A stretch of DNA of 64,000 nt from an uncultured Planctomycetales bacterium (GTDB lineage: Bacteria; Omnitrophota; Gorgyraeia; Zapsychrales; JANLHA01), in contig CAZAXH010000008.1 in the NCBI GenBank assembly GCA_964489065.1, forward strand, positions 64,130 to 128,129, read 5' to 3'. Positions 6,151-32,977 of the stretch are shown here, one piece after another (the first letter of the stretch is position 1; every line of letters starts with the position of its first letter). Below the pieces are notes generated by a model that was not told where the DNA came from, ran no database searches, and saw nothing but the letters and a program-made list of their open reading frames with translations. A program made the position numbers and the translations under genes.

Positions 6151-6181
6151 TTGACTTTTTGAGCCAAAATTTTAAGATAAT
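6151..6181 (+). promoter_or_regulatory. Sigma70-like promoter candidate (TTGACT-16 nt-TAAGAT/GATAAT) facing the island
   Basis: -35 TTGACT at 6151-6156 and -10 TAAGAT at 6173-6178, about 185 nt upstream of the DegT gene start at 6366. Confidence 0.35.
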
Positions 6182-6365
6182 ATAAGTAGGCTGGGGCCCT
6201 TAGCCCGTTTATAGGATACCAATAAAGCAGTATCAAGGTTTGATGCTTTAATATATAATAAGTTAACATGATATATAACTATAAATTAATTCTATGTTAT
6301 ATTAATCAAATATTATGTGGACTATGTGCCCGGGATGATCCGGGAAAAAGACATAAAAACGGGGT

Positions 6366-9779: not shown

Positions 9780-9780
9780 T

Positions 9781-12431: not shown

Positions 12432-15184
12432 AACCTGACACGATCATTCGCGCGACGCAAAGCGTTTGCCCTGTATGCCTGGAAGCCGTGCCCGCGACGG
12501 TGCTTGAGAAAGACGGCCGGGTTTACCTGACTAAGACCTGCCCCCGGCACGGGGCCTCCGAAGTCCTTCTGTCTGAGACCGCGGGTCTTTACAAAGAACT
12601 GGAAGGCTTTTTTTCCGCCGTTATGAACCCGTCTTACCGCATCCGCGAATATGAAATCTGGGTGACAATGCGCTGCAACACGTCTTGCACCATCTGTCAT
12701 CTCGGAGACAGCAACAGGATCGACATCCCGGACCCGAGCCTGGAAAAAATCGAGGAGTTTATCCTCCGGCATGACCAGCCGGCTTATATCCTTTCTGGGG
12801 GAGAGCCCACCTGCCGGGAAGACCTGCCGGATATTGTCCGCCTTTTTAAAAAGCACGGCAAGCATATCAGCCTGCACACGAACGGTCTGGCTTTAGGGAA
12901 CAAAGATTACATCCGTTCCCTGCAGGAAGCGGGGTTGGACCGGATCAATCTTCAATTTGACGGGTTCGCGCCGGACGCGTATAAAATTTTCCGGGGGAAA
13001 AATATCCTGGATAAGAAGCAACTGGCTTTAAAAAACCTGGAAGACCTGCGTCTGCCGACGGATTTGAATATCACGGTTGCCCGGGGTGTCAATGAGCCGG
13101 CCGTCATGGACAGCGTCCGGTTTGCCGTTAAACATCCTTTCATCTCTTCCGTTAACTTCTTCACGATCTGCTACCTGGGAGAAACGGCCCGATGGCCTTT
13201 AAAATATTTCCTTATGCCGGATACGATCGGAGACATCCTGGAAAAAGAAACAGGCGGCCGGATTTCCAAGCGCGGCATCATCCTTTTTCAGAAACTGCAC
13301 CTGGCCGTTAAATCCCTGCGTTCGGAGCGTTATTGCCTTTACAGCCAGATTTTTGTCCTGTTCCGAAAACGGGACGGGACGTATGACCCCATTGACCGCT
13401 ATCTTAACCTGGAACGGACGGACAGGCTTCTGAAACTTTATCAAAAAATGGCTCCCGGGCATCCTGTCCTCGCCAAAATAATTTTAATTTTAGGCCTGCC
13501 GTTTTTTATGATGCGCTGGTCCACGCTGGTGATCCTGAAAGAAATCTTGCGGACCGGATTTTCTTTTATGATCAACGAGGATTACGCTTTAAAAACCAGC
13601 CCGTTCCTTTATTTGAATTTTAATACGAGCTGTGATCCTTATAAAATCGATTACGGGTTCGTGCAGGATTGTCAGGATGAAATCATTTTTTATGACCGTC
13701 AGCAGGAACACTTGGTGAACCAGGGAGTGGACGGATTGCGCGCCATCGAGTTCGAGCGCCGCTACCGTAAGGCCGCCCCCAAGGAGACGATTCGCATTGA
13801 TCGGAAAATGGAAACATCCCAGAGGCATAAGCCTGCCGGCTTGGGCAACCGTGTCATTCGGGAGACAATGAGCGTGTGTCCTGTTTGCCTGGCCCCGCTC
13901 CCGGCCAGGATCCGGGCCGGAGCGGATGGCGTTTATCTGGAAAAGACATGCCCCCGGCACGGGGCCTTTCGCGTTTTTGTTTCGACTCATCCGGATGATT
14001 ATCAGGCCCTGTCCGACACTTATTTTTATTTTATCCCCGGGGCTCTGGAACAACGGGAATATTACGTCTGCGCGAGCACGCGGTGCAACATTTCGTGCCC
14101 GATTTGTTACCTGAATTATTGCCCTGAGCGGCCTCCTCTGACGCCCGAGGATATGAACAGCGCCGTGGGGGATAAACCGCAGGTGGAGCGCTTCACGTTT
14201 TCCCACGGCGAGCCCACGGTCTCTCCGCAACTGCCGGAGATGATCCGGGCTTTAAAGAAAGCCGGGAAATTTGTCAACATTCATACGAACGGCGTGAAAC
14301 TTGCCGATTATGCTTATACTCAATCCCTGAAACAGGCGGGGCTGGATCACGTGAGCCTCCAGTTTGACGGTTTTCGTGATGAAATTTATGAGACCCTGAG
14401 AGGCGGGAAGCTCTTGGAGGCCAAAACGCGCGCTTTGGATAATCTTAAGGCGCTGGAAATCCCCGTGACATTAAACGTGACGATCGCCGGGGGCGTTAAT
14501 GAAGACGAGTGGGGCAAAGTTTTTGATTACGTTGTCCGGAATGATTTTATTAAAGACGTGAGTTATATCACTTACTGCCATTACTCCCCTCAGGGGGATG
14601 CCGAGGGCCGGTCCATGATGCCGGACGACCTGGTGATACGCCTCGTGGAGCATTCTCAAGGGACGATTGAGAGGGAGGATGTGGTCTGTTTTCAGAAATT
14701 GTTTTACGCCTATTTAAGCGCCTTCCGCAAGAAAAAATGCTTTAACTATTATCATTATTGCGTTGTGCGGACATCCGGCGGATACCGTGGGATTGAGCGT
14801 TATCTGGATGTGCGGAAGATCGCCGGGAAGATTGACGCGTGCCGGGAGAGAGGACAAACGATGACGAAAACGTTGTTGCTGAAAATATTGTTAACCTCTC
14901 TGCGATGGGATAGTGTGGCGTTGATTCCTTACGGATTATTTTTGCTGTCGCGCGGGGGGTATCCCCCAAGCCCCGGGAAACTTTTAGTCGTGACGTTGGC
15001 CAGTATCTGCGACCCGTATAAATATGACGCAACGGTCGCCTTAAATTGCGGGCAGGGCATTATTACTCAAACCATGCAACATGAGAGTTACGGGACATAT
15101 ATTATCGAGGAGATGAAGCGTTCGCCGCGTCCCGACGCAGCTCGTGTCCTGCCTGACGCGTTTCCTCAAGGGGGTTCGGTATAA
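12428..15184 (+). CDS. Didomain fusion: two tandem zinc-ribbon-radical SAM modules in one 918-aa ORF
   Basis: Module 1 has SVCPVCLEAVP...KTCPRHG, MRCNTSCTIC, LSGGEPT, TSCDPYKID, DCQDEI. Module 2 starts near aa 470 (about 13835) with SVCPVCLAPLP...KTCPRHG, STRCNISCPIC, FSHGEPT, SICDPYKYD, NCGQGI. There is no stop between the modules. Confidence 0.7.
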   Translation: MKPDTIIRATQSVCPVCLEAVPATVLEKDGRVYLTKTCPRHGASEVLLSETAGLYKELEGFFSAVMNPSYRIREYEIWVTMRCNTSCTICHLGDSNRIDIPDPSLEKIEEFILRHDQPAYILSGGEPTCREDLPDIVRLFKKHGKHISLHTNGLALGNKDYIRSLQEAGLDRINLQFDGFAPDAYKIFRGKNILDKKQLALKNLEDLRLPTDLNITVARGVNEPAVMDSVRFAVKHPFISSVNFFTICYLGETARWPLKYFLMPDTIGDILEKETGGRISKRGIILFQKLHLAVKSLRSERYCLYSQIFVLFRKRDGTYDPIDRYLNLERTDRLLKLYQKMAPGHPVLAKIILILGLPFFMMRWSTLVILKEILRTGFSFMINEDYALKTSPFLYLNFNTSCDPYKIDYGFVQDCQDEIIFYDRQQEHLVNQGVDGLRAIEFERRYRKAAPKETIRIDRKMETSQRHKPAGLGNRVIRETMSVCPVCLAPLPARIRAGADGVYLEKTCPRHGAFRVFVSTHPDDYQALSDTYFYFIPGALEQREYYVCASTRCNISCPICYLNYCPERPPLTPEDMNSAVGDKPQVERFTFSHGEPTVSPQLPEMIRALKKAGKFVNIHTNGVKLADYAYTQSLKQAGLDHVSLQFDGFRDEIYETLRGGKLLEAKTRALDNLKALEIPVTLNVTIAGGVNEDEWGKVFDYVVRNDFIKDVSYITYCHYSPQGDAEGRSMMPDDLVIRLVEHSQGTIEREDVVCFQKLFYAYLSAFRKKKCFNYYHYCVVRTSGGYRGIERYLDVRKIAGKIDACRERGQTMTKTLLLKILLTSLRWDSVALIPYGLFLLSRGGYPPSPGKLLVVTLASICDPYKYDATVALNCGQGIITQTMQHESYGTYIIEEMKRSPRPDAARVLPDAFPQGGSV

Positions 15185-15188
15185 AATT

Positions 15189-16751
15189 ATGAAGATCGCC
15201 TTTATTAATGATTCCTGTGAACGGCTGGGTGTTGAATATATTTCAGCCGTGCTTAAACAGCATGGGCACACCGTCAAATTGTTCGCCGATCCGCAGCTCT
15301 TTGATGACGAAAATTTTACAATCGCGCCTCTGGCCAGGTTTTTTGACCGGCAGGAAGACCTGCTGGCCCAAATTCAGGCGTTCCAGCCGGATCTGATCGG
15401 GTTCTCGGTCGTGACGGACTTTTATCAGTGGGCCTGCCGCCTCGCCAGGCGTATCAAAGCGGTGATGGATGTCCCGGTGCTTTTCGGAGGGATTCACGCG
15501 ACATCGGTTCCCGAAAAGGTCCTGCAGCAGGATTGCGTGGATATGGTCTGCCGGGGGGAAGGGGAGTTCGCCCTTTTGGACCTCGCCGACAGCATGGAGA
15601 AGGGCCTCCGGGATTACACGATCCCCAACATTTGGTTTAAAAAAGACGGTGCGATCATCAGGAATGATGCGCGTCCCCTGATCGAGGACCTGGATGCGCT
15701 GCCGTTCGCGGATAAAGACCTTTTTTATGAGGCCAGCCCCCATTTTTCCCGTTGCTATTTCCTGATGACCAACCGCGGCTGCGCTTACGCCTGCAGTTAT
15801 TGCTGTAATTCATTCCTGAAAAAATTTTATCATGCGAAAGGCCGGTACCTGCGTTTCCGCAGCGCCGGAAACGTGATCCGGGAGTTGACCCTGGCCAAAC
15901 AGAAATACGGCATTAAAATGGTCCGTATCCACGATGATGACTTCCTCACGCACGACGTGCCCTGGTTCGAGGAGTTCGCGGAAGAATACTCCCGGCATAT
16001 ACAGGCCCCGTTCGCATGCTTCACGCACCCCAACAGCGTGACGGAAACCAAAGCCCGCCTGCTGAAGAAAGCAGGGTGCCACGATATCGAAGTGGGGGTC
16101 CAGTCCATCTCCTCGGACACGCGTTACCGGATTCTTAACCGCCGCGTTTCGGATGAGCAATTGGTCCGCGCTCTGCAGATATTAAAAGACGCGGGCATCA
16201 AGGTGATCACGGATAATATCCTGGGGCTTCCTCACCAGGGGCGGGAGGAGCTTCTGGATCTCATTAAATTTTATAATAAAAACAGGATCATGAAGATTTA
16301 CTGTTTCGGCTTCCGGCATTATCCGGCCACGGATATCGTCGAATATTCCAGGGACGAGAAACTGCTGAGCGCACAGGATGTCGAGAACCTGGAGAACGGG
16401 ATCAATGTCAAGACCTTCATTCAGAGCGGGGATAATTTGAGCCGTGAGGACCGGCAACTGCAGACATTTTTTGCGTTTCTGCTCTACCTGCCGGAGACGG
16501 TCAATAATTACATCCTTGAGAAAAAGCTGTACCGTTATTTTATCCCGCTCCCGTATTATGTCCTGGTTATCTTTTCCAATTGGCTGCGCATCCCGTACCG
16601 GTACAACTGGGCGCTGCATATTACCGTGTGCCGGTACCGGGTTTATGCTTATAAAACGATAAAGAAAAAGTTTACCTCGGGTATCAGGGCGTTGCTTAAA
16701 AAGTTCCGCCCTTCGGCCTTTAACACGGCGCGGGGGACGCCTGTCCGGTGA
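15189..16751 (+). CDS. Predicted B12-binding-domain radical SAM protein (MKIAF subfamily, paralog 1 of 7 in tandem)
   Basis: N-terminal Rossmann-like MKIAFINDSCERLGVEYISAVLKQHGH, then NRGCAYACSYCCNS (CX3CX2C) and DLDALPFADKDLFY. Start chosen at the ATG just after the upstream stop, with AGGGGG about 15 nt upstream. Confidence 0.7.
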   Translation: MKIAFINDSCERLGVEYISAVLKQHGHTVKLFADPQLFDDENFTIAPLARFFDRQEDLLAQIQAFQPDLIGFSVVTDFYQWACRLARRIKAVMDVPVLFGGIHATSVPEKVLQQDCVDMVCRGEGEFALLDLADSMEKGLRDYTIPNIWFKKDGAIIRNDARPLIEDLDALPFADKDLFYEASPHFSRCYFLMTNRGCAYACSYCCNSFLKKFYHAKGRYLRFRSAGNVIRELTLAKQKYGIKMVRIHDDDFLTHDVPWFEEFAEEYSRHIQAPFACFTHPNSVTETKARLLKKAGCHDIEVGVQSISSDTRYRILNRRVSDEQLVRALQILKDAGIKVITDNILGLPHQGREELLDLIKFYNKNRIMKIYCFGFRHYPATDIVEYSRDEKLLSAQDVENLENGINVKTFIQSGDNLSREDRQLQTFFAFLLYLPETVNNYILEKKLYRYFIPLPYYVLVIFSNWLRIPYRYNWALHITVCRYRVYAYKTIKKKFTSGIRALLKKFRPSAFNTARGTPVR

Positions 16752-16761
16752 AACAAGATAA

Positions 16762-18114
16762 ATGTCTATGAAAACTTATTTCATAAGCGCGTCGACATTC
16801 TGCATGGAACGGATGCTGGACTGCCAGCAGGTTTCCGATTATCTCAAGTTGAACGGCTGGCGTCCGGTGACGCGGGTTCGGCAGGCCGGGCTGGTCATCA
16901 TAAGCACCTGCTCGTTCGGGCGCGAAGAGGACGCGAGCTCCCTGGATTATATCCGTTATTTTCTGCGGAAGAAATCGCCCCGGGCCCGTTTCCTGATTAT
17001 GGGGTGCCTTCCGGTGATCAACCCCGACTTATTATCTTCTTATCAGGATATTCCCGTGCTCACACCGACCACTTTATCCCGGATCGAAACCGTGGCCCCT
17101 CCGGAGAGGACCCGGTTCGCGGATGTCCCGGAACCCAATAAAATTTTGGCGACAGAAGTCACGCACAGTGTTTTTCTGAAAAAAGCGTTAAGTTTCCGTT
17201 CCGCGTTCAGGCAGGGCCTCCGGTGTTTTAAGCCTGATGTAGCGACGTTGCGGCGGGGGCTGTCCTTCCTGAAAGCCGCGGTGCGTTATGTCCCGGTTAT
17301 GAAGGCGCACATTAACCCGTTCTTATCCTGTAACCGGAACGGATTTTATTATTTGAGATTATCCAAGGGCTGCCTGGGGAACTGCAGTTACTGCGCTAAA
17401 AGACATTCGACAGGGACCTTGCAGAGCAAATCCACAACCTCTATCCTCGATGAATTCCGCGCCGGGCTCAGGGCCGGGGAAAAGCAGTTTTATTTATTGA
17501 CGGAAGACGTCGGCTGTTACGGGGCCGACCGGCACACAGATATCGTAGCCTTGTTGAAAAATCTTTTTGAAGCCGGGGAGAGGCATGATTTCCGGATTGT
17601 CCTGTCCAATTTCAATGCCCGGTGGTTCGTGCGGTATTATGAGGACCTGGAGCCGGTCTTGATCCGGAATCAGAACAAAATTTTGTATCTGCAAATACCG
17701 ATCCAGTCAGGCAGCACCCGCATCCTGGAATTCATGAACCGGCATTACACCATTGAAGACGTGGAATCCCGGCTCCTGACTTTAAGAAAGAACGCCCCGG
17801 CGGTCGCCTTCACGACCGATATCATCGCCGGATTCCCGGGGGAAACGGATGAGGATTTTGAACTCACCAAGAAGTTTTTGTCGAAAATACGTTTTCAGCA
17901 CGTTGATATTTTCGCTTACGAAAAACGCCCCGGCACTAAAGCGGGAACGCTTCCCGGGGACGTCCCCCCGGAGATCATCGAAGCCCGTGTCCTGCAGTTG
18001 GCCCGGCTTCAGAACAGCTATCACCGGGGCCCCATGCTTGCTAAAAAAGTGCTGGATGTTATCCGGGAAAACCTGCAGCGCTACCGGAATAAAGCCGTGA
18101 CCCGTACGCCATGA
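16762..18114 (+). CDS. MiaB/RimO-like radical SAM methylthiotransferase family protein
   Basis: N-terminal MTTase-like domain with LVIISTCSF, rSAM motif LSKGCLGNCSYCAKRHSTG, and ITDIIAGFPGETDEDF typical of the MTTase C-terminal region. Confidence 0.6.
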   Translation: MSMKTYFISASTFCMERMLDCQQVSDYLKLNGWRPVTRVRQAGLVIISTCSFGREEDASSLDYIRYFLRKKSPRARFLIMGCLPVINPDLLSSYQDIPVLTPTTLSRIETVAPPERTRFADVPEPNKILATEVTHSVFLKKALSFRSAFRQGLRCFKPDVATLRRGLSFLKAAVRYVPVMKAHINPFLSCNRNGFYYLRLSKGCLGNCSYCAKRHSTGTLQSKSTTSILDEFRAGLRAGEKQFYLLTEDVGCYGADRHTDIVALLKNLFEAGERHDFRIVLSNFNARWFVRYYEDLEPVLIRNQNKILYLQIPIQSGSTRILEFMNRHYTIEDVESRLLTLRKNAPAVAFTTDIIAGFPGETDEDFELTKKFLSKIRFQHVDIFAYEKRPGTKAGTLPGDVPPEIIEARVLQLARLQNSYHRGPMLAKKVLDVIRENLQRYRNKAVTRTP

Positions 18115-19625
18115 CAAAACAAGGCCTGAGAATTGCTTTTGTGAATGATTCCTGCGAGCATTTGGGGGTTGAATATATCTCCGCCGTGCTGAAATCCGCA
18201 GGGCATGATACCCGTCTATTCGTTGACCCGCTTTTGTTTGATGATGAATTTATCACCGTTAAGGGGCTCAGCCGCCGCTTTGATTACACTAAGAAGATTA
18301 TCCGGGACCTCAGGGCTTATCAGCCGGATCTGGTCAGCCTGTCGGTGGTCTCAAGCTTCTATCCCTGGGCCGGCCGGATGGCCCGGGCTATAAAGGCGGA
18401 GATGGACGTCCCCGTTATCATGGGCGGTATTCATCCGACATCCGTTCCCGAAAGTGTCATCCAGAACGACGCCGTGGATATGGTCTGCCTGGGGGAAGGG
18501 GAATACCCCCTGCTGGAACTTGCCGACAGTATGGCCCGGGGAAGTATCGACGACACCGTAAAAAACATCTGGTTTAAAAAGAACGGGAAGATCCTGCGCA
18601 ACCCTTTGCGGCCGCTTATCGACGATTTAGATGCCCTCCCGTTTCCCGATAAAGACCTTTATTATTCCGTCAGCCCGCATTTTTCAAAAAGTTATTATAT
18701 CGCGACCAGCAGAGGCTGCCCCAACGCCTGCAGTTATTGCTGTAATTCTTACCTGCATTCTTTGTACAAGGGCCTGGGCGCGCCGCGGCGGTCGCGCAGC
18801 GTCCGGAATGTCATTGAAGAATTAATGTGGGCCCAAAACCGTTACCGGATCGATCCGGTTTTCTTCCTGGATGACTGTTTCGGGACCGATTTGGGATGGT
18901 TAAAAAAATTCGCGACGGAGTACCGAGAAAAAGTCGGCGTTAAGTTTTACTGCATGATGTTCCCCGCACCCCAGATGGAAGAGGCGGTTGAATATCTCGC
19001 GCAGGCCGGCTGCGGGGAAATCGAGATCGGCGTCCAGTCCTGGGATGAAGATGTCAGGCGCCGGATATTCAACCGGCGCGTTTCGAACGACACGATGATC
19101 CGGACGATGAAATTGATCAGGAAGGCGGGGATCAATCTCGTGACAGGCGATATCCTCGGTTATCCCGGGCAGAAAGAGGAGCATATTTTAAAAACCGCGG
19201 AGATTTACACAGACATAAAACCCAGCCGGACGTACGCTTTTATCCTGAAATATTTTCCCAAAACGGAGATCACGGAACAGGCGCTGCAGAACGGATGTCT
19301 GAGTCCGGCGGATCACGAAAAAATATTGGACGGCCATTACGGCAAATACTTATCGAAAGACGGCTCCATGACAGAGAGGGATGTCATGCAATATCTGCTT
19401 CTATTTTTGCTGGTGCGTATTTTACCGGTCTCTTGGGCCAAGACAGTAATCCGGAAAAAATTTTATAAGCGTTTCCCGGTTTTGTTCACGCCGGCCGTGA
19501 TTTCAATCCTGAATAATTTTTCGACATCCACCTTTGAATCGCAGGTCAACCGGAAAAGCGCCCTGGCACGGTACACTTTTTTCATTAAACGATTGTTTTC
19601 TAAATCCAAAGCAGGTGCGCGATGA
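18111..19625 (+). CDS. Predicted B12-binding radical SAM protein (MKIAF subfamily, paralog 2)
   Basis: LRIAFVNDSCEHLGVEYISAVLKSAGH, SRGCPNACSYCCNS. ATGA overlap with the upstream gene. Confidence 0.7.
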   Translation: MTKQGLRIAFVNDSCEHLGVEYISAVLKSAGHDTRLFVDPLLFDDEFITVKGLSRRFDYTKKIIRDLRAYQPDLVSLSVVSSFYPWAGRMARAIKAEMDVPVIMGGIHPTSVPESVIQNDAVDMVCLGEGEYPLLELADSMARGSIDDTVKNIWFKKNGKILRNPLRPLIDDLDALPFPDKDLYYSVSPHFSKSYYIATSRGCPNACSYCCNSYLHSLYKGLGAPRRSRSVRNVIEELMWAQNRYRIDPVFFLDDCFGTDLGWLKKFATEYREKVGVKFYCMMFPAPQMEEAVEYLAQAGCGEIEIGVQSWDEDVRRRIFNRRVSNDTMIRTMKLIRKAGINLVTGDILGYPGQKEEHILKTAEIYTDIKPSRTYAFILKYFPKTEITEQALQNGCLSPADHEKILDGHYGKYLSKDGSMTERDVMQYLLLFLLVRILPVSWAKTVIRKKFYKRFPVLFTPAVISILNNFSTSTFESQVNRKSALARYTFFIKRLFSKSKAGAR

Positions 19626-21136
19626 AAATCGCTTTTGTCAACGATTCATCCCAGCAGCTGGGTATACAATATATTTCGGCCGTCCTTAAACAGCACGGCC
19701 ATGACGTGAAGCTGTTCATGGACCCCCAGTTATTCGATGACGATGTGATCCGGGTCCCCCGATTGAGCCGGTGGCTTGATTCCAAGAAAGAGCTTGTCCG
19801 GCGTCTGAAAGCCTATCAGCCCGACTTGGTCGGGATCTCCGTGGTGACGGATTTTTACCAGTGGGCCCGCCGGATCGCCACGATGATCAAGGAAGAAATG
19901 GATGTCCCGATTATCGCCGGCGGAATCCACCCGACATCCGTTCCCGAGAGAGTGCTGAAAAACGATTGTTTTGACATGGTGTGTCTGGGAGAAGGGGAGT
20001 TTGCTTTGTCGGAACTGGCCGACAATATGCAGAAGGGAACGCCTGACTACACGATCCGTAATATCTGGTTCAAACGGGACGGCCAAATCATAAAAAATGA
20101 ACTCCGGCCGCTTATCGATGACCTGGACGACCTGCCCTTTCCGGATACGGACTTGTATTATTCCGCCAGTCCTCATTTTAAAAGGACCGGCCTGTACGTT
20201 ACCATGACTTCTCGCGGCTGTCCGAACGCCTGCACGTACTGCTGTTTTTCTTACCTGCAGGGGCTTTACAAAGGGAAAGGGAAAAGGATCCGGCAGCGCA
20301 GCGTCGGCAATGTCATGAGTGAATTGCGGACCAACAAGGAAAAATACAACATCAAGTTCGTCGCGTTTATGGACAATTGTTTCGGGTATGATTCGAAATG
20401 GTTGCGGGAATTTGCGCCCGTTTATCAGGCGGAGATCGGGATTAAATTCTGGTGCATCATGCATCCCAAGGATGTCACGGAAGAAACCCTGAAGCATTTG
20501 AAGCGGGCCGGGTGCCACACGATTGACATGGGGGTGCAGTCGTGGAACGAGCGCATCCGCAAGGAGGTCCTGCACCGGGATGTCGGGAATGACACGATGG
20601 CCCGCGCGATCCTCCTGGTCAAGAATGCGGGGATCGAAATCATGACCGACAGCATTTTCGACCTTCCCGGGCAAACGGAAGACGACATCCTGGAAAGTGC
20701 CCGCCGTTATGCGGAAATCCGGCCCAAGCGGATATATTTTTACATGCTCCGGCATTACCCCAACACCCTGATTACCCGGATGGCGAAGGAGGATAATCTT
20801 CTGACCTCATCCCGGTATGAAGAAGTGATGGACGGGGTGAACGTCACGTCTTTCACCATCGGAGGCGACAAGGTCAATAAAGACATGATCCGGTTTCAGA
20901 TCCTGTTTTATCTGATCGATTTGATCCCCAAACGGATGAGCTTGTTTATCATCCGCAGGAGACTGCACCGGTATTTCCCTCTCATGTTCGGCCCCGCCAT
21001 GATCGTGATCCTGCGTAATTTGCTGGCCTTTGACATGAACGCCCGGCTTCAGCGCGCCTGGGCCTTTAACCGTTACGCGCATTTTATCTGGGAGAAAATC
21101 CGTCCCGTCCGAAAATGCCGGGGACATCAGCCATGA
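19622..21136 (+). CDS. Predicted B12-binding radical SAM protein (MKIAF subfamily, paralog 3)
   Basis: MKIAFVNDSSQQLGIQYISAVLKQHGH, SRGCPNACTYCCFS. ATGA overlap. Confidence 0.7.
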   Translation: MKIAFVNDSSQQLGIQYISAVLKQHGHDVKLFMDPQLFDDDVIRVPRLSRWLDSKKELVRRLKAYQPDLVGISVVTDFYQWARRIATMIKEEMDVPIIAGGIHPTSVPERVLKNDCFDMVCLGEGEFALSELADNMQKGTPDYTIRNIWFKRDGQIIKNELRPLIDDLDDLPFPDTDLYYSASPHFKRTGLYVTMTSRGCPNACTYCCFSYLQGLYKGKGKRIRQRSVGNVMSELRTNKEKYNIKFVAFMDNCFGYDSKWLREFAPVYQAEIGIKFWCIMHPKDVTEETLKHLKRAGCHTIDMGVQSWNERIRKEVLHRDVGNDTMARAILLVKNAGIEIMTDSIFDLPGQTEDDILESARRYAEIRPKRIYFYMLRHYPNTLITRMAKEDNLLTSSRYEEVMDGVNVTSFTIGGDKVNKDMIRFQILFYLIDLIPKRMSLFIIRRRLHRYFPLMFGPAMIVILRNLLAFDMNARLQRAWAFNRYAHFIWEKIRPVRKCRGHQP

Positions 21137-22653
21137 AGATCGCGTTTGTCAATGATTGCGTCGAGAGGCTGGGGGTTGAATATATTTCGGCGCTCCTGAA
21201 GGGGCAGGGGCATCAGGTGAAACTTTTTGTCGATCCCCAGCTTTTTAATAACGTGTATGTGCAGATCAACCGCCTGAGCCGGTATTTTGATTACACGGAA
21301 AGAATTATTCGCGGTCTCATGGAATATCAGCCGGACCTGATCGGATTCTCCGTGGACACGGAATCCTATCAATGGGCTTCCCGTCTGGCGCGGCGCATTA
21401 AGGAGCGCATGGAAACTCCCATTATTTTCGGCGGGATCCATCCGACATCCGTGCCGGAGCGGGTTATTTTAAATGAAGCCGTGGATATCCTTTGCGTCGG
21501 GGAGGGGGAACACCCCATGCTGGAACTGGTCAACAGCATGGCCCGGGGCGGCGTGGACACGGCAATAAAGAATTTGTGGTTTAAAACGAACGGCAGGATT
21601 ATCACAAATCCCTTAAGGCCTCTTTTGGCCGACCTGGACAGACTCCCGGTCGCCGATCACGGCCTTTTTTATGACACTTACCCCTATTTCCGCAAAGGGT
21701 ACAGCACGATCGCTTCGCGCGGCTGCCCTTACGCCTGCAGCTACTGCGGGCACGCGTATCTGCGGCAATTGTATCAAAACAACGGGGCCTATTTCCGTCA
21801 CCGCAGTGTCGAAAATCTGCTGGATGAATTAGCGCTGCGCCTGACGCAGTATAAAATCGATATCATCACTTTCTTTGACGACAATTTCGGTTTTGAACCG
21901 GAGTGGCTGGAGAAATTTTCCGTCCGGTACGCCAGGGATATCAGAAGACCGTTTACCGTGACCGCCCGCCCGGAAATGATTTCCCGTGATTATGTCCGCC
22001 TCTTGAAACAGGCCGGATGCTGCTCCGTGACCCTGGGCGTTCAAACCTGGGATGATGCCGTTCGAAAAGAGTGGTTTAACCGGGATGTGAACCCGGAGGT
22101 GATGCTGAAGGCCATGCGGCTCGTCAAGGAAGCGGGCCTGGAATTGATCTGTGATAACATATTCGGGGTTCCCGTTGAAAACGATGAGGGGTATATGCGG
22201 GCGTTGCTGCCCTATGCCGATATTAAACCCGACCGGATCCTGTTTAATCAGCTGAAATATTTCCCGCGCGTGCCGATCACGGAAAAGGCCCGTGAAGGAA
22301 ATTTCATATCGGAGCAGCGGTATGACGCCATTATGGACGGCCGGGACCAGAAAGGAATTTTCCTGGGGCCGTCTGCCGCGAGCCGTGGGGACCGTAGACA
22401 GCTGATCCGGAAAAAACTTTTTTTATATTCATTGGATTGGTTGCCAAAAACATGGGCGCGGTTTATTATTAATAAGCGTCTTTACCGTTATTTCCCGACT
22501 TTCATTAACCCGGCGGTTCTTCCGGTTTTGCGGACGTTTTTTTCGTCCGACACGGACACGCGATATTTTAAACGCCGGACTTTATCACGCTACTGGTATC
22601 ATTTGACCCCACGCCTGCGGGGTCGGAGGAGACACGATGAGCCCACAAACTGA
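21133..22653 (+). CDS. Predicted B12-binding radical SAM protein (MKIAF subfamily, paralog 4)
   Basis: MKIAFVNDCVERLGVEYISALLKGQGH, SRGCPYACSYCGHA. Start placed at the ATGA overlap with the upstream stop, matching the pattern of the neighbouring genes. Confidence 0.7.
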   Translation: MKIAFVNDCVERLGVEYISALLKGQGHQVKLFVDPQLFNNVYVQINRLSRYFDYTERIIRGLMEYQPDLIGFSVDTESYQWASRLARRIKERMETPIIFGGIHPTSVPERVILNEAVDILCVGEGEHPMLELVNSMARGGVDTAIKNLWFKTNGRIITNPLRPLLADLDRLPVADHGLFYDTYPYFRKGYSTIASRGCPYACSYCGHAYLRQLYQNNGAYFRHRSVENLLDELALRLTQYKIDIITFFDDNFGFEPEWLEKFSVRYARDIRRPFTVTARPEMISRDYVRLLKQAGCCSVTLGVQTWDDAVRKEWFNRDVNPEVMLKAMRLVKEAGLELICDNIFGVPVENDEGYMRALLPYADIKPDRILFNQLKYFPRVPITEKAREGNFISEQRYDAIMDGRDQKGIFLGPSAASRGDRRQLIRKKLFLYSLDWLPKTWARFIINKRLYRYFPTFINPAVLPVLRTFFSSDTDTRYFKRRTLSRYWYHLTPRLRGRRRHDEPTN

Positions 22654-23980
22654 AACCCTTGTCCGCGAAACCACCAGCCTTTGCCCGGTGTGCCAAAAGC
22701 AGATTAAGGCGGCCGTTGTGGAGTCCGGGGACGGGATTTTTCTTTCCAAAAACTGCGATGTGCACGGGCCGTTTAAACTCAGGGTTTCGCGCCACGCTTG
22801 GTATTATAAAAACCTGACGGAGTATTATTTCCGCGTCATGCCGGCTGATATGCCCCAGAAACGTTTTTATATTTATTTAAGCAACCGCTGCAACCTTGAT
22901 TGCCCGATTTGCCTGCTGGAACCGAACCAGGATAAAGCGGCCGATGTCTCCCTGGACCAGTTTAAAAAGCTGATCCGCGATAACTCCGGTTTCCGTTATT
23001 ACCTTTACGGCGCGGAACCGACCCTGCGCGATGATCTCCCGGAATGGATCGCCCTTCTGAAAAAACACGGCAACCTGGTTAATATTCACACCAACGGCAT
23101 TAAACTTGATGATATCGCCTATCTCCGGTTCTTAAGAGACGCCGGGCTTGATTATGTGAGCCTGCAGTTTGACGGCTTCGACGATCAGGTCTATCTGGCG
23201 CTCCGGAACCGCACATTGCTGGATTCGAAGCTGAAAGCCCTGGAGAATCTTGAAAAGCTGGATATTCCGACGGGGCTCAATGTCACTATCGCCAAGGGCC
23301 TGAATGAGAAGGAAATAAACCCTATTATAGACTACGCTGTCGGTAAACCCTTTATCCGGGACGTGAGTTTCGCTTCGGTGTCTTTCCTGGGGAACGCGGA
23401 AAGGAATTTTTCTTCCGCGGACCTGCTGATGCCGGATGACGTGGTGGACCTGGTTGAAAACGCCACAAAAGGCAAAGTGAACCGCCGCAGTCTCTTCTTA
23501 TTTCAGAAATTGTATTATGCCGTGTTGTCTATTTTTAACATCCGCCGGTGCTATAATTTTCATCAGCTCGCTTTGGTCCGGGACGGACGGGGGGGATACC
23601 GATCCTTTGACGCGATCTATGACCTGGCGGGGTTTGAAAAAAAGATGGACCGGTTCAGCCATCTGGCGCCCCGGAATAAAACCCTGGCGGCGGGATATTT
23701 CTTCCTGCAGTTTATCATGAACATGCTGTCGGGCGACGTGAAGGAAAAGGTCCAGATCCTGCCGCTCAACATGCTCCTGCCGGGGCAGAAACGGAACGTG
23801 AAAATCCCGTCCAAGATCCTGCTCGTCAGCTTCGGGACGGTCTGCGATAAATATAAATACGATGCGGGGATTTCCCGGTACTGCGGGCAGGGGTTTGTTT
23901 TCAACCGGGATGGAAGCCTGGCGCTATCGGATTCCGTTTCGGACATGACGCTTTTAAAAAAGGGTGAGGCCTGCGGTTGA
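22637..23980 (+). CDS. Zinc-ribbon-radical SAM family protein (fourth gene, fifth module)
   Basis: SLCPVCQKQIK...KNCDVHG, LSNRCNLDCPIC, LYGAEPT, TVCDKYKYD, YCGQGF. RBS GGAGGA upstream. Confidence 0.65.
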   Translation: MSPQTETLVRETTSLCPVCQKQIKAAVVESGDGIFLSKNCDVHGPFKLRVSRHAWYYKNLTEYYFRVMPADMPQKRFYIYLSNRCNLDCPICLLEPNQDKAADVSLDQFKKLIRDNSGFRYYLYGAEPTLRDDLPEWIALLKKHGNLVNIHTNGIKLDDIAYLRFLRDAGLDYVSLQFDGFDDQVYLALRNRTLLDSKLKALENLEKLDIPTGLNVTIAKGLNEKEINPIIDYAVGKPFIRDVSFASVSFLGNAERNFSSADLLMPDDVVDLVENATKGKVNRRSLFLFQKLYYAVLSIFNIRRCYNFHQLALVRDGRGGYRSFDAIYDLAGFEKKMDRFSHLAPRNKTLAAGYFFLQFIMNMLSGDVKEKVQILPLNMLLPGQKRNVKIPSKILLVSFGTVCDKYKYDAGISRYCGQGFVFNRDGSLALSDSVSDMTLLKKGEACG

Positions 23981-24013
23981 ACCAGGGGGATGAAGGTCGG
24001 CAAGGATAAGGTT

Positions 24014-25540
24014 ATGAAAATCGCGTTTATCAATGAAGCGGATCAGCATATAGGCCTTCAGTACCTCACGGCGGTGCTGAAGGAGAACGGGCATGAGGTG
24101 AGGACATTTTCCGATCCGCGTTTATTCGATGACCTCTACATCACGATCCGGAGGCTCAACCGGATTTTTGATTTCCAGGACGACATCCTTAAGGACATCG
24201 CCGAATTTAATCCGGGATTGATCGGGTTTTCAGTATCCAGCCCGATCTATCGATGGGCCTGCGCTTTGGCCGCCAAGATAAAAGAACGCAGGGATATCCC
24301 CATTATTTTCGGCGGAGTTCACGCCACGGCCGTGCCGGAACGCGTGATTCGGAAAAGTTTCATAGATATGGTTTGTGTCGGGGAAGGGGAGTTCCCTATG
24401 CTGGAACTGGCCAACAGCATGGACCGCGGGCAGCCGGATTATTCCATTAAAAATATATGGTTTAAAACCCCACAGGGAGAAATTATCCGGAACGATATCC
24501 GTCCCCTACTTGATGACCTGGACGTTCTGCCTTTCCCGGATCAGGACCTGTTTTATTCCAGCAGTTCCTGTGACACCCGAAGCTACGTAACCATGATCTC
24601 CCGGGGCTGCCCGCACGGCTGCAGTTACTGCACCATGTCTTATCTGCACGATCTTTACCACGGGAAAGGGAAACGGATCCGGCTGCGCAGCGTCCGAAGC
24701 ATTATCGCCGAAATCACCGGGGTCCTGCAGAAGCACAAAGATATCAAAAGGGTCATGTTCCCGGACAACTGCTTCGGGACGGATATCGCCTGGCTGCGGG
24801 AATTCTCCCGTGAGTATTCGCAGAAAGTCGCCAGAGATTTTTTTTGCGTGATGCATCCCGCATCCGTCACTGAAGAATCCGTCGCGTGTCTCAAGGAGGC
24901 GGGATGCCGGTCCATCTCCCTGGGAATTCAGGCCTGGGACGCCCCGCTGCGTTACACCATGCTTAACCGCAAAGTTTCCAATGAGGTCATGGAAAACGCC
25001 CTGCGGCTTATCCTGGAGGCCAGGATTGAGCTCTTAATCGATAACCTGTTTGATTTTCCGGGGTACAGCATGGAGCATTATATTGAATCCCTGGAAGTTT
25101 ACACGCGGTATAAGCCGACGCGGAATTATTTTTATAAGCTGCATTTTTATCCGCACACCCAAATGAGCCAGATTGCCGTTCAGAATCGCTGGATCACGGC
25201 CGCGGAATACGAAGATTGCTTGGAAGGAGGGGACACCCTGGGGATTCTGCGTTATGATGCGTCACACGACGGCAATCGGACCCGGCAGCAGGACCGTGAA
25301 TCGAGACAGGGGCAAATTTTGTTTGTTTTGATGGACCTGATCCCCGCCCGCTGGACCCGGGCCATCATTCAAAAGAAATGGTACCGGTATTTTCCGTCTT
25401 TTCTGAACCCGGCTTTACTAACGATGCTCCGGACCCTGCTGGCCAACGATTTTGAATCACGTTACTTTAAGGACATAACATTCTGGCGGTATCGCCATTT
25501 TATGATGAAAAAATTGAAAGCATATTTTAAAAGAAAATGA
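24014..25540 (+). CDS. Predicted B12-binding radical SAM protein (MKIAF subfamily, paralog 5)
   Basis: MKIAFINEADQHIGLQYLTAVLKENGH, SRGCPHGCSYCTMS. An alternative upstream ATG at 23990 is too close to its AGGGGG. Confidence 0.65.
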   Translation: MKIAFINEADQHIGLQYLTAVLKENGHEVRTFSDPRLFDDLYITIRRLNRIFDFQDDILKDIAEFNPGLIGFSVSSPIYRWACALAAKIKERRDIPIIFGGVHATAVPERVIRKSFIDMVCVGEGEFPMLELANSMDRGQPDYSIKNIWFKTPQGEIIRNDIRPLLDDLDVLPFPDQDLFYSSSSCDTRSYVTMISRGCPHGCSYCTMSYLHDLYHGKGKRIRLRSVRSIIAEITGVLQKHKDIKRVMFPDNCFGTDIAWLREFSREYSQKVARDFFCVMHPASVTEESVACLKEAGCRSISLGIQAWDAPLRYTMLNRKVSNEVMENALRLILEARIELLIDNLFDFPGYSMEHYIESLEVYTRYKPTRNYFYKLHFYPHTQMSQIAVQNRWITAAEYEDCLEGGDTLGILRYDASHDGNRTRQQDRESRQGQILFVLMDLIPARWTRAIIQKKWYRYFPSFLNPALLTMLRTLLANDFESRYFKDITFWRYRHFMMKKLKAYFKRK

Positions 25541-27012
25541 AAATCGCTTTTGTAAATGATTCCTGTGAACGTCTGGGTGTCGGTTATATCGCGTCCTTGT
25601 TGCGGTCGCGCGGGCATGACGTGCGGCTTTTTGTCGACCCGCAGTATTTTAATGATGAAAATATCAGTATCCGCTGGCTTCACGCCCGGTTTGATTATAA
25701 AAAGACAATCGTTCCGGCGCTAAAGGCTTTTACGCCCGACCTGATCGGCTTTTCCGTGGTTTCGGATTTTTATCCATGGGCTTGCCAGATGGCCGAACTG
25801 ATCAAGAAAGAACTGCCGGTTCCGATTATTTTCGGCGGGATCCACCCCACGTCCGTTCCGGACCGGGTCATTAAGAATGATTGCGTTGATATGGTCTGCG
25901 TGGGGGAAGGGGAATACCCTATGCTGGAGCTTGTGCAGAGCATGAGTTCCGGGAGGCCGGATTATTCCATAAAGAACATCTGGTTTAAAAAGAACGGGGA
26001 GATCATCAGGAACGAACAGCGTGATTTAATCGCCGACCTCAATGTCCTGCCGTTCCCGGCCAAAGACCTGTTTTATTCCGTGAGCCCGCATTTGGCTCAA
26101 TGTTATTACATTATGGCCAGCCGGGGCTGCATGTATTCCTGCAGCTACTGCTGTCATTCTATTTTAAGACAGCGCTGTAAGGGCAAAGGGGCCTACTTCC
26201 GGCAACGGCGGGTCGGGCATGTCATGGATGAACTCAAAGCCGCCAAAGAGCGGTATAAAATACGGTATGTGCGCTTTTTTGATGATAGCCTGGGTTCCAA
26301 CATGACCTGGCTTAAAGAGTTTTCTGAAAAGTATCCCCGGGAAGTCGGTCTGCCTTTTATATGCTACATGTATCCCAGTCACGTGTCCGCGGAGACGGCC
26401 CGCCTGCTGAAAACCGCGGGCTGCTGCGAGGTGGAAATCGGCGTTCAGAGTCTCAATGAAGATTTGAGCCGCAGCGTTTTGAACCGGAACATGTCCGTGG
26501 AGACGATCGCCAACGCCATCGACCTGTTAAAAAAGGAAAAGATCCGGCTTGTCGCGGACAATATCGTGGGCCTTCCCGGACAGGAAGAAGCGGATATCGT
26601 CCGCATGGCCGAATTTTACAACCAGCGCCGGGTCAACCGGATATATTTTTTCTGGCTGCGTTATTACCCCGGGACACAGATCACGGAATACGCGAAAAAA
26701 CACGGATTTTTAAGCGCCGAAGAATACGAGCTTATCATGGAAGGCGCGCCGAGCCGGCCCTTTTCAAGGGGGGGGAACACCATGAACGCGGAATGGATGG
26801 GGCTGCAGTTTTTATGTTTGCTTATTCCGCTTTTGCCGCCCCGTGTTATAAACTGGATTATAAGAAAACGGATATACCATTATTTCAGCAAGATTAAATC
26901 ACCGGGCATTTTCGCCGCCTTAACCAGCTTATTTTCAACCGCCTATAATGATAAACTTCTTATCAGGCGGGAATTCGCCCGTTACAGCCGCCTTTTTAAA
27001 GGCGCGCATTAA
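25537..27012 (+). CDS. Predicted B12-binding radical SAM protein (MKIAF subfamily, paralog 6)
   Basis: MKIAFVNDSCERLGVGYIASLLRSRGH, SRGCMYSCSYCCHS. ATGA overlap. Contains a G8 tract at 26768-26775. Confidence 0.7.
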   Translation: MKIAFVNDSCERLGVGYIASLLRSRGHDVRLFVDPQYFNDENISIRWLHARFDYKKTIVPALKAFTPDLIGFSVVSDFYPWACQMAELIKKELPVPIIFGGIHPTSVPDRVIKNDCVDMVCVGEGEYPMLELVQSMSSGRPDYSIKNIWFKKNGEIIRNEQRDLIADLNVLPFPAKDLFYSVSPHLAQCYYIMASRGCMYSCSYCCHSILRQRCKGKGAYFRQRRVGHVMDELKAAKERYKIRYVRFFDDSLGSNMTWLKEFSEKYPREVGLPFICYMYPSHVSAETARLLKTAGCCEVEIGVQSLNEDLSRSVLNRNMSVETIANAIDLLKKEKIRLVADNIVGLPGQEEADIVRMAEFYNQRRVNRIYFFWLRYYPGTQITEYAKKHGFLSAEEYELIMEGAPSRPFSRGGNTMNAEWMGLQFLCLLIPLLPPRVINWIIRKRIYHYFSKIKSPGIFAALTSLFSTAYNDKLLIRREFARYSRLFKGAH

Positions 27013-27029
27013 CCGCGGAAAGGATTAAC

Positions 27030-28640
27030 ATGCGAGTCGCGTTTATCAGCAATGCTTATGAGAGCATGGGATTCGAATATCTTTCTGCCGTTTTAAAAAA
27101 GGCCGGCCATGAAGTCAGATTATTCATGGACCCGGAACTTTTTAACGATTCCGACACGACGATTTCTCCATTGGGTAAATTTTTCGATTTCAAACCGCAG
27201 CTGCTCGCGGACCTGAAGCCCTTTAAACCTGATTTAGTCGCGTTTTCCGTCATCACGGATTCTTTCCTCTGGGCCGCCGACCTCGCCCGCCGGATTAAAA
27301 GCGAAATGAACGTGCCTATCATTTTCGGTGGCATTCACGCCACATCCAGCCCGGACAGCGTTATCGCCAACGATTGTATCGATATGGTTTGCCTGGGGGA
27401 GGGGGAATACGCCATGCTTGACCTGGTGGCAAGTATGGCCCTAGGGGAAACCGACTTGTCTATCAGGAACATCTGGTTTAAAGCGGATGGGAAAATCATC
27501 AAAAATGATATGCGCCCTTTAATTGAAGATTTGGACACGCTGCCTTTGGCTGATAAAAATCTTTATTATTCGGTCAGCCCTCATTTTCGCTTCTGCTATT
27601 ATACGCTGACCAACCGGGGCTGTCCGCACGCCTGCTCTTATTGTATCCATTCTTATTTAAGAAAATTGTACCGGGGGAAAGGGGCGTACTGCCGCCAGCG
27701 CAGCGTCGATAATGTCATTCAGGAGCTGGTGGACGCCAAGAAAACTTATAATATCTCCCTGGTTCGGTTCATGGATGACTGTTTCCCTTCTGAAATCGGC
27801 TGGCTGAACGAATTCAGGGAAAAATACGCCAGAGAAGTCGGCCTGCCTTTCCTGTGTTACCTTTATCCCTGTCAAGTCACCCCCGGGGTGCTGGAAGCCC
27901 TTGAGGCCAGCGGCTGTGTGGAGATTAATCTAGGGATTCAGTCCTGGGATGAAAATGTCCGAAAAAAAGTCTTGCACAGGATGGAAGACAATGAGACCCT
28001 GGAGAATTTGCTGGATATCTGTTGCCGGTTTAAATTCAGTTATGTCCTGGATATTATCAGCGGAATCCCAGGGGAAAATATTGATTCCCTGTTCGAATTC
28101 CTGCAAATGTGCCGGGCCAAAAAGTTTAAAAGCGTTAATTTTTACTGGTTAAAGTATTATCCGGCAGTCACCATCACACAGGAGGCGTATAAAAACGGCG
28201 TGATTACCCTCGAACAGGTTTCAAAAACAGCCGCGGGGAAGCTGGGCCGAAATTTCGCGGTGGGAGGGGATACCGAAAACGCCGATAGCCGGAAGCTCTA
28301 TCTTTTCTTCCTCCTCTGCCGGTGCCTCCCCGGAAGAACCGCCCGGTGGCTTTACCAAAAAAAGGCGTACCGTTTTATGCCGGGTTTTGTCCCTTTGCGG
28401 ATTTTATATTTTTTTTGGAATTTCCCGGCCAACAATTATGAACTCAAATACATTCATAAAATGCAAACGTTTTATTACCGGCATTTTATCCTGGCCAGGC
28501 TTAAACAGCATCTCGGGCAGGCCTGGCGTTCCCTGAAGAAATGCGCGCGGCGTTTATGGCCGAGCCAAGGACCTGTCCGGATTTCGCAAGGCGAAGTCCG
28601 GGTGGCCGGTGAGAAGTCAAAACCGACATTTAAGTCATGA
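27030..28640 (+). CDS. Predicted B12-binding radical SAM protein (MKIAF subfamily, paralog 7)
   Basis: MRVAFISNAYESMGFEYLSAVLKKAGH, NRGCPHACSYCIHS. RBS AAAGGA upstream. Confidence 0.7.
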   Translation: MRVAFISNAYESMGFEYLSAVLKKAGHEVRLFMDPELFNDSDTTISPLGKFFDFKPQLLADLKPFKPDLVAFSVITDSFLWAADLARRIKSEMNVPIIFGGIHATSSPDSVIANDCIDMVCLGEGEYAMLDLVASMALGETDLSIRNIWFKADGKIIKNDMRPLIEDLDTLPLADKNLYYSVSPHFRFCYYTLTNRGCPHACSYCIHSYLRKLYRGKGAYCRQRSVDNVIQELVDAKKTYNISLVRFMDDCFPSEIGWLNEFREKYAREVGLPFLCYLYPCQVTPGVLEALEASGCVEINLGIQSWDENVRKKVLHRMEDNETLENLLDICCRFKFSYVLDIISGIPGENIDSLFEFLQMCRAKKFKSVNFYWLKYYPAVTITQEAYKNGVITLEQVSKTAAGKLGRNFAVGGDTENADSRKLYLFFLLCRCLPGRTARWLYQKKAYRFMPGFVPLRILYFFWNFPANNYELKYIHKMQTFYYRHFILARLKQHLGQAWRSLKKCARRLWPSQGPVRISQGEVRVAGEKSKPTFKS

Positions 28641-32773: not shown

Positions 32774-32977
32774 AAACAGAGGAGGACAAAAGGGCCGCCC
32801 CCTGGCAAAAATTATGGAGCCCCATGCCCATAGGCATGTGGCTATTAACAATTCGTTTCGCGGAATGATCTGACCACCTTAATATATGTACGGACATCCC
32901 CGAAACAGAAAACCTTGTTAGTCCTCCGGCATTCATCCACGGGCACGCCTGCGGTCTTCTGCCAGGGGGATAAAAAT

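Follow-up and report, generated by a model that had tools for sequence, protein, structure and literature searches.

A stretch of 64,000 nucleotides (nt) from an uncultured bacterium of the phylum Omnitrophota, hereafter the window (assembly GCA_964489065.1, contig CAZAXH010000008.1, positions 64,130 to 128,129), contained an array of seven paralogous radical S-adenosylmethionine (SAM) genes of the B12-binding type, named B1 to B7. The genes B1 (15189–16751), B2 (18111–19625), B3 (19622–21136), B4 (21133–22653), B5 (24014–25540), B6 (25537–27012) and B7 (27030–28640) were located on the plus strand, spanned 15189–28640 and showed no internal stops. Independent gene calling on the source contig, a metagenome contig of Omnitrophota type (Logan SRR15237810), agreed with the starts at 15189 and 21133 and placed the start of the fifth gene at 23990 instead of 24014. 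Pairwise BLASTP comparisons gave E=1e-130 to 1e-177 with 39–50% identity, well outside random similarity, and the amino-acid identity in the codon alignment was 38–49%. The seven intact same-strand paralogs of the initial annotation were recovered at identical coordinates. The array belonged to a co-directional gene block at 6366–34765 within a locus of approximately 45 kb, in which 19 radical SAM domains were encoded by 18 genes between 7414 and 49071. The window as a whole was dense in co-directional genes.

The motif RGCxxxCxYC was present in all seven paralogs, but B6 carried serine where alanine or glycine had been annotated. The second motif, DLDxLPxxD, was detected in six of the seven, the corresponding residues of B6 being DLNVLPFPA. 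The annotated signature was hence confirmed for the cluster-binding site and required correction for B6. Cysteine triads were complete and reading frames intact in every copy, so that the paralogs did not show the degeneration that the initial annotation had named as grounds for rejection. Four ATGA overlaps were located at 18111, 19622, 21133 and 25537 and one overlap of 17 nt at 22637, which accounts for the five overlapping junctions described before. One ATGA junction and the 17-nt junction adjoined genes that are not paralogs, and ATGA overlaps occurred throughout the operon without being peculiar to the B genes. The array was also not contiguous, being split by two other radical SAM genes that encode a MiaB-like enzyme (16762–18114) and a Tes/GDGT-MAS-like enzyme, Z5 (22637–23980).

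An eighth paralog, B8, was present on the minus strand (36259–37674), as annotated before, but it was only 25–29% identical to B1–B7. It carried the motif CPAHCSYC and matched Radical_SAM as its only Pfam domain. Three further B12-type radical SAM-like genes had been overlooked: B9 (39370–40875), a B12-binding enzyme of a different subfamily, B10 (42134–43612), a BchE/HpnJ-like radical SAM enzyme, and B11 (47599–49071), a paralog of B10 with 36.5% identity and a Pfam Radical_SAM match. All three were encoded on the plus strand. The CxxxCxxC motif was found in all of B1–B11, and the B12-binding domain was not detected by Pfam in B8, B10 and B11.

B1, B2 and B7 were scanned directly with Pfam and reached 60–67 bits for the B12-binding domain PF02310 (cut-off 32.1) and 57–90 bits for the Radical_SAM domain PF04055 (cut-off 29.5). 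The precomputed Pfam annotation of the source contig listed both domains for all seven paralogs. Together with CxxxCxxC, PF04055 places the proteins in the radical SAM superfamily, and the N-terminal B12-binding Rossmann domain joined to the radical SAM barrel is the architecture of class B. The annotation of B12-type radical SAM paralogs with intact cysteine triads, packed in one operon, was therefore borne out by Pfam and motif scans. An AlphaFold model of B3, based on an alignment of 82 sequences, reached a pLDDT of 91.6 and a pTM of 0.90. Its best folds in the PDB, searched with Foldseek, were TsrM, MgmA, CysS, AprD4, OxsB and TokK (E=1e-17 to 1e-22, TM score about 0.6–0.66, identity at most 19%), MgmA being the second-best distinct match. 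By sequence, the best solved structure was AprD4 (PDB 6FD2) with E=4e-13.

Membership in characterised families was not obtained in NCBIfam comparisons. HpnJ (TIGR03471) scored 87–118 bits for B1, B3 and B7 and 160 bits for B9 against a cut-off of 577.6. The lipid-biosynthesis B12/radical SAM family of the 'ladderane-type' cluster (TIGR04072) was matched with 80–109 bits against 360, the AprD4 diol dehydratase family (NF033070) with 27–62 bits against 500 and the C-methyltransferases of ribosomally synthesised peptides with post-translational modifications (RiPPs) of the PoyB/PoyC type (TIGR03975) with 76 bits for B1, 68 for B3 and 52 for B7 against 281.85. Equivalog status as HpnJ, TIGR04072, AprD4, PoyB/C, Tes or MiaB was rejected for the proteins of the locus, every score lying under the curated cut-off. 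Because no B paralog reached a curated cut-off, B1–B7 are classified on their sequences as a distinct, previously uncharacterised subfamily of class B (cobalamin-type) radical SAM enzymes. The subfamily was large in metagenomes, with 4514 representatives at E<=1e-30 in a phmmer search of 1.84 billion representatives. The top 150 were all full-length with 34–45% identity and included some fusions of 738–950 amino acids (aa).

The paralogs were only distantly related at the nucleotide level. Overall nucleotide identity among B1–B7 was 48–58%, and the third codon positions were 33–43% identical in the codon alignment. The longest exact run was 25 nt, shared by B1 and B2 over the cluster-binding motif, and the strings shared by the 5' ends measured 14–17 nt. 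The 5' similarity had been proposed as a substrate for gene conversion. Short shared strings do exist, but with exact runs of at most 25 nt and saturated synonymous sites they offer no realistic substrate, and recent duplication with gene conversion was ruled out in the lack of long identical tracts. The order B1 to B7 was identical in three independent assemblies, namely this contig, the metagenome-assembled genome with locus L007 and an activated-sludge contig with locus L016, which showed approximately 80–93% protein identity. This agreement and the low nucleotide identity exclude an assembly artefact.

Ratios of nonsynonymous to synonymous substitution rates (dN/dS) were calculated against the orthologs in L007. 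They amounted to 0.076 for B1, 0.111 for B2, 0.083 for B3, 0.111 for B4, 0.081 for B5, 0.071 for B6 and 0.068 for B7, a range of 0.07–0.11, and to 0.08–0.14 for Z1, Z2, Z5 and the MiaB-like gene. B1–B7 are anciently diverged paralogs, all under purifying selection. Diversifying selection was ruled out by these values, and the suggestion of a diversifying family failed on the low ratio of every copy and on orthogroups kept across genomes.

Scans with strict back-translated patterns yielded only eight loci from genome contigs and six from metagenome contigs. All named close homologs belonged to Candidatus Omnitrophica or Omnitrophota, and among named sequences the gene cluster occurred in Omnitrophota alone. 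The core gene order was constant across the related loci, namely DegT – SPASM – Z – DegT – Z – B1 – MiaB-like – B2 – B3 – B4 – Z – (B5)n – B6 – (B7) – membrane protein – LPG_synthase_TM – family 2 glycosyltransferase (GT2) – WbqC – YfhO. A neighbour-joining tree of the B proteins with 200 bootstrap replicates resolved orthogroups with bootstrap values of 100 for B1, 88 for B2, 98 for B3, 100 for B4, 98 for B5 and 82 for B6. Mean identity was 0.59–0.71 within the orthogroups and 0.44 between them (maximum 0.51). B1–B4 and B6 were present as single copies, and in a constant order, in almost all related loci that covered their position. Locus L004 was the exception, with B2 and B3 swapped and with weakly grouped copies at the B4 position (bootstrap 26) and the B6 position (bootstrap 23). 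B5-like genes varied from 0 to 3 copies per locus, and B7 was limited to the closest relatives, L007 and L016. Fully covered arrays held 5, 6 or 7 B genes, and across all lineages the number was 5 to 7 or more. B1, B2, B3, B4 and B6 thus form a fixed set, and B5 and B7 are lineage-specific extras.

Nearly all residues that were invariant in a single orthogroup and did not occur in any other mapped to positions 248–480 of B3, with few in the B12 domain. This region takes in the C-terminal domain and the second half of the barrel, the part of class B enzymes in which the substrate is bound, and the location of the group-specific residues suggests specialisation of the B copies on the substrate side. 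Taken together, orthogroups, dN/dS and group-specific residues form a joint signature in the sequences of old subfunctionalised enzymes and not of a diversifying or redundant family. A site- or step-specific role of each copy, one of the options raised before, was retained as the best reading of the orthogroups and the substrate-side residues.

The radical SAM genes interleaved with the array belonged to two further families. The Z family comprised five domains, each with a Zn-ribbon and a radical SAM core, in four plus-strand genes starting at 8403, 11049, 12428 and 22637, with 35–46% mutual identity; related loci held 3–5 such domains. Z1 (8403–9779) matched Pfam PF23545 and PF04055 and aligned with GDGT-MAS (PDB 7TOL) at E=3e-39. 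Its top NCBIfam matches were TrsS and Tes, and it had the Zn-ribbon and radical SAM architecture of Tes (NF045702), although its score of 144 bits fell short of the family cut-off of 450. Z2 (11049–12431), also Tes/GDGT-MAS-like, was an accessory gene present only in the closest relatives. Z3-Z4 (12428–15184) was a single open reading frame (ORF) of 918 aa with two Tes/GDGT-MAS-like Zn-ribbon and radical SAM units according to Pfam. In the close relative L007, it was represented by two genes with a TAA stop between them, so that the fusion is recent or possibly a sequencing difference. Z5 was recognised by Pfam, had a dN/dS of 0.113 and kept its position between B4 and the next B genes in all related loci.

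The MiaB-like gene at 16762–18114 (plus strand) encoded a methylthiotransferase-type enzyme with UPF0004 and Radical_SAM domains and the invariant cysteines C14/C50/C82 and C204/C208/C211. The TRAM domain was absent, and the score of 212 bits for the MiaB/RimO family (TIGR00089) was below the cut-off of 251. Among 5.8 billion proteins, this TRAM-less family was rare and amounted to 45 clusters at E of about 1e-80 or better. In its close tier (E<=1e-130), every named member was from Omnitrophota. Distant relatives with 31–38% identity were encoded inside nucleotide-sugar and polysaccharide clusters that held NTP_transferase, RmlC-like isomerase, epimerase/dehydratases, DegT, glycosyltransferases of families GT1, GT2 and GT4, Wzx flippase and pyruvyl transferase. 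The sequence contexts hint at methylthiolation of a sugar instead of a transfer RNA (tRNA). In L003, a natural fusion of 936 aa (5696–8506 of that locus) joined the B1 ortholog to the MiaB-like enzyme, and because of this fusion the two enzymes probably act in one pathway.

The remaining genes of the locus pointed to sugars and the cell envelope. Those between 6366 and 34765 were located on the plus strand, as were DegT_c, the small radical SAM enzyme, the PMT_2 glycosyltransferase and the amidotransferase further downstream. The first gene of the operon, DegT_a (6366–7421), encoded a DegT/PseC/ArnB-like sugar aminotransferase (Pfam PF01041, 270 bits), whose best NCBIfam matches PseC, LegC and ArnB were all below cut-off and whose position was kept in related loci. 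It adjoined, here and always in the related loci, a radical SAM enzyme with Pfam Radical_SAM and SPASM domains (7414–8406), which showed weak PDB matches to PqqE (1e-6) and BtrN (3e-5). A second aminotransferase, DegT_b (9781–11052; PF01041, 223 bits), was also kept in related loci. Downstream of B7, a conserved membrane protein (28681–30291) had no Pfam match but contained hydrophobic segments and a C-terminal beta-propeller-like region with weak propeller matches; it directly followed the array in L002, L003 and L020. The next genes encoded a flippase-like membrane protein of the LPG_synthase_TM family (30305–31366; PF03706, 78 bits; start taken from the gene call on the source contig, 20684 in L001 with an offset of 9621), a small GT2 of the ArnC/PpgS-like polyprenyl-phosphate sugar synthase type (31360–32076), a WbqC-like protein of a family known from O-antigen clusters (32078–32773; PF08889, 248 bits) and a YfhO-like polytopic membrane protein of the glycosyltransferase C (GT-C) type with many hydrophobic segments (32915–34765; PF09586). 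The GT2 was identified by PF00535, had ArnC and the polyprenyl-phospho-GalNAc synthase PpgS as best NCBIfam matches below cut-off, and has an estimated start, the longest ORF beginning at 31303.

On the minus strand, a PaaK/F390-synthetase-like adenylating enzyme (34766–36262), with NCBIfam matches below cut-off, overlapped B8. A protein with HEAT repeats and a hydrophobic segment at its N-terminus (37979–39181) was encoded between the divergently transcribed B8 and B9. B9, which was located directly upstream of DegT_a in L005 and L013, was followed by a third sugar aminotransferase, DegT_c (40877–42124; PF01041, 249 bits; start estimated, longest ORF from 40739). After B10 came a small radical SAM enzyme of 334 aa (43609–44613) and a PMT_2 (ArnT-like) GT-C membrane glycosyltransferase (44621–45982; PF13231, 88 bits). 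A polytopic membrane protein without Pfam family was located at 46007–47602. B11 was followed by an asparagine-synthase-type amidotransferase (49076–50962), identified by Pfam, with the XrtA/PEP-CTERM exopolysaccharide (EPS) amidotransferase as best NCBIfam match. Altogether, the sugar and envelope partners comprised three DegT aminotransferases, the ArnC/PpgS-like GT2, LPG_synthase_TM, WbqC, YfhO, PMT_2 and the EPS-type amidotransferase; domain scans also placed a SAM methyltransferase and the PaaK/F390-like ligase among the partner genes, and an ABC-2 exporter adjoined the locus.

Remote relatives of the B genes again occurred in multiples. In L023, they were located beside a SPASM enzyme and a fusion of PMT_2 with an EptA-like sulfatase. 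L022 (GCA_046331705, contig JAXLQJ010000028.1), from an unclassified bacterium, held three B-type and two Z-type genes, and because both types were present there, the partnership of B and Z enzymes reaches beyond the Omnitrophota cluster. L022 also coded for large proteins lacking an assigned function, one with a faint match to an MtrC/MtrF domain, and no sugar gene was found among its genes with Pfam matches.

In the most likely reading of the gene content, the cluster makes a heavily modified, non-peptide amino-sugar or glycolipid precursor of the envelope by successive site-specific C–H functionalisations. A probability of roughly 0.5 is assigned to this reading, and the precursor would probably be lipid-linked. 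In the proposed pathway, the DegT – SPASM – DegT trio would form an amino or diamino sugar by radical SAM-dependent oxidation and subsequent transamination. BtrS and BtrN of butirosin biosynthesis are the model for this logic, the similarity of the enzyme at 7414 to BtrN being weak. Each of B1–B4 and B6 would perform a single C–H functionalisation specific for one position or step. Methylcobalamin-dependent C-methylation is the most likely reaction, and some B copies may catalyse non-methylating class B chemistry. Their substrates would be successive intermediates of a non-peptide amino-sugar building block, to which the Z and MiaB-like enzymes could introduce further C–C or C–S modifications. 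The accessory copies B5 and B7 may add lineage-specific decorations, with copy numbers of 5 to 7 or more leading to differing patterns. The ArnC-like GT2 would attach the product to polyprenyl phosphate, the flippase-like protein would move it to the other side of the membrane, and the GT-C enzymes YfhO and PMT_2 would pass it on to an acceptor in the envelope.

Several observations weigh against this pathway. The substrate was deduced from the gene neighbourhood alone, and the window contained neither a nucleotidyltransferase nor a 4,6-dehydratase for a nucleoside diphosphate (NDP)-keto-sugar. At least five B12-type and at least three Tes-like steps are many for one sugar, and no B paralog attained a curated family cut-off. 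Methylation does not follow from the fold alone: AprD4, which matched closely in structure, is a dehydratase, and OxsB, BchE and HpnJ are likewise class B radical SAM enzymes other than methylases. Furthermore, we know of no characterised relatives of the Z family besides Tes and GDGT-MAS, and these work on lipid tails.

This last point leads to the main rival explanation, the tailoring of lipid tails. In this case, the Z and B enzymes would act on hydrocarbon chains, either in a membrane lipid or in the polyprenyl carrier, giving cross-linked, cyclised or multiply methyl-branched lipids, and the sugar genes would provide the head group only. A parallel is known from archaea, where Tes is accompanied by ring-forming or methylating radical SAM enzymes. 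The GDGT-MAS alignment of Z1 with TrsS and Tes as top families, the presence of HpnJ and TIGR04072 among the best NCBIfam matches of the B paralogs and the joint occurrence of B and Z in L022, with no recognisable sugar gene among its Pfam-matched genes, are in agreement with lipid substrates. The same applies to the moderate hydrophobicity of the C-terminal segments in B2, B3, B6 and B8 and of one segment in Z1–Z3; that of the C-terminal segments was too weak for a transmembrane-helix call. Nevertheless, the family scores were far under the curated cut-offs and no gene for fatty-acid, isoprenoid, ether-lipid or glycerol-phosphate metabolism was found in the window or in related loci. The radical SAM genes were also interleaved with DegT aminotransferases in a fixed order, and the relatives of the MiaB-like enzyme were embedded in NDP-sugar clusters, which makes lipid-tail tailoring, on the present analysis, unlikely as compared with the modification of an amino sugar. 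A more far-reaching variant can be envisaged in which the B12-type, Tes-like and MiaB-like enzymes constitute a radical SAM 'assembly line' that uses successive methyl additions and C–C couplings to extend an amino-sugar scaffold, or one linked to polyprenyl, into a carbon framework with branches, rings or cross-links. The probability of this variant is low. If true, it would lead to a structurally unprecedented envelope glycolipid of Omnitrophota, and a possible biomarker, without polyketide, fatty-acid or terpene-cyclase chemistry.

Modification of a peptide or protein was considered in two forms, many-site methylation of a ribosomal peptide and modification of a full-length envelope protein that is later glycosylated by the GT-C enzymes. 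The superfamily also contains B12-type radical SAM enzymes that C-methylate RiPPs and methyl-coenzyme M reductase, MgmA was a fold match, ApyD and rSAM_ocin_1 were among the weak NCBIfam matches, and the YfhO and PMT_2 families include protein glycosyltransferases. However, only six intergenic gaps between 5157 and 53963 exceeded 50 nt, and none of them held a plausible precursor ORF. The Pfam and NCBIfam matches obtained for the proteins of the locus contained no domain for leader binding or RiPP export and no protease domain. The conserved partners were sugar aminotransferases. Modification of a RiPP precursor was rejected on the absent precursor, the low TIGR03975 scores (52–76 against 281.85 bits for B1, B3 and B7) and the sugar context, and the repetitive peptide substrate suggested by analogy to polytheonamide was abandoned for the same reasons. 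Peptide or protein modification in general is considered very improbable. Practically no weight was given to a recent tandem amplification, homogenised by gene conversion or under diversifying selection, or to an assembly expansion that produced redundant or artefactual copies. Such an origin would fit the short strings shared at the 5' ends and the cluster-binding motif and the varying copy number among lineages, but not the low third-position and amino-acid identities, the assignment of each core copy to its own orthogroup across genomes with bootstraps of 82–100, the low dN/dS and the single gene order in three assemblies. The negative conclusions, namely no artefact, no diversification and no recent origin, are far more secure than the pathway picture.

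Compared with known systems, the B paralogs had the same plan as TsrM, TokK, CysS, MgmA, OxsB and AprD4, in which a B12-binding domain of the Rossmann type at the N-terminus is followed by a radical SAM barrel carrying CxxxCxxC and by a helical domain at the C-terminus. Those enzymes occur with 1–3 copies in antibiotic or cofactor pathways, whereas seven close and four distant paralogs were present in this one locus, with at most 19% identity to them. Sets of paralogous class B methylases are known as ThnK/L/P for thienamycin, BotRMT1-3 for bottromycin, GenK/GenD1 for gentamicin and PoyB/PoyC for polytheonamide, each responsible for particular C-methylations. They resemble the locus in having several class B paralogs per cluster. 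However, they comprise 2–3 members acting on peptide, beta-lactam or aminoglycoside substrates, while the Omnitrophota set comprised 5–8 members with orthogroups kept across the sampled Omnitrophota and was paired with Tes-like and MiaB-like radical SAM enzymes and envelope glycosylation genes. The Z genes shared the N-terminal Zn-ribbon (PF23545) and radical SAM core of Tes and GDGT-MAS but differed in their low family score and in occurring as 3–5 paralogs per locus among sugar aminotransferases, without adjacent lipid-synthesis genes. Like the methylthiotransferases MiaB, RimO and MtaB, the enzyme at 16762–18114 had UPF0004 with three conserved cysteines and the radical SAM motif CxxxCxxC; in contrast to them, it lacked the RNA-binding domain TRAM and had relatives in sugar clusters. 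The three-component periplasmic glycosylation systems of the Arn and GtrB/YfhO type, consisting of polyprenyl-phosphate sugar synthase, flippase and GT-C enzyme, had counterparts in the DegT, GT2, flippase-like, YfhO and PMT_2 proteins. These matches were below equivalog cut-offs, and the formyltransferase, decarboxylase and deformylase of the Arn pathway were not present in the locus. To our knowledge, no system of the Arn or GtrB/YfhO type has a radical SAM tailoring block.

Literature searches for radical SAM enzymes in Omnitrophota or Omnitrophica, for WbqC and for clusters of B12-type radical SAM paralogs returned no account of this locus. We know of no described locus with seven close and four distant B12-type radical SAM genes, five Tes-like domains, a TRAM-less MiaB-like enzyme and conserved orthogroups. 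The proteins extend a known superfamily, and the novelty of the system is a variant of architecture, not a principle. Class B radical SAM enzymes catalyse reactions that rank among the most difficult in biology, such as methylation of unactivated carbon, ring contraction and C–C coupling, and only a handful have known substrates. The locus offers 5–8 related, individually conserved members of this class together with partners and an export and attachment module. If the modification of an amino-sugar or glycolipid precursor is true, the locus would represent a novel form of tailoring for glycoconjugates or glycolipids and a natural series for the evolution of site specificity on one enzyme scaffold. 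Omnitrophota are mostly uncultured, partly predatory, ultra-small bacteria. The proposed pathway, if correct, would predict a lineage-variable surface molecule, which could matter in their contact with host or prey and be of use as a chemical marker for the phylum.

An Rfam scan of the window returned no match and hence no cobalamin or SAM riboswitch. A scan for promoters and terminators was uninformative and gave only a terminator-like hairpin at 5163–5179 and a promoter-like site at 6151–6178, upstream of the operon. An Mrp/NUBPL-type Fe-S cluster carrier ATPase was encoded at 2864–3691, approximately 2.7 kb upstream of a locus requiring at least 19 [4Fe-4S] clusters, which may be a coincidence. 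The radical SAM block at 8000–28000 had a G+C content of 0.50–0.55, compared with 0.445–0.49 in the flanks. Directly downstream of the locus, the region 52085–58551 coded for an ATP-binding cassette (ABC)-2 type exporter with ATPase and permease, followed by an AcrB-type resistance-nodulation-division (RND) pump with an outer-membrane factor. Both the exporter and the pump are possible export routes for the product.

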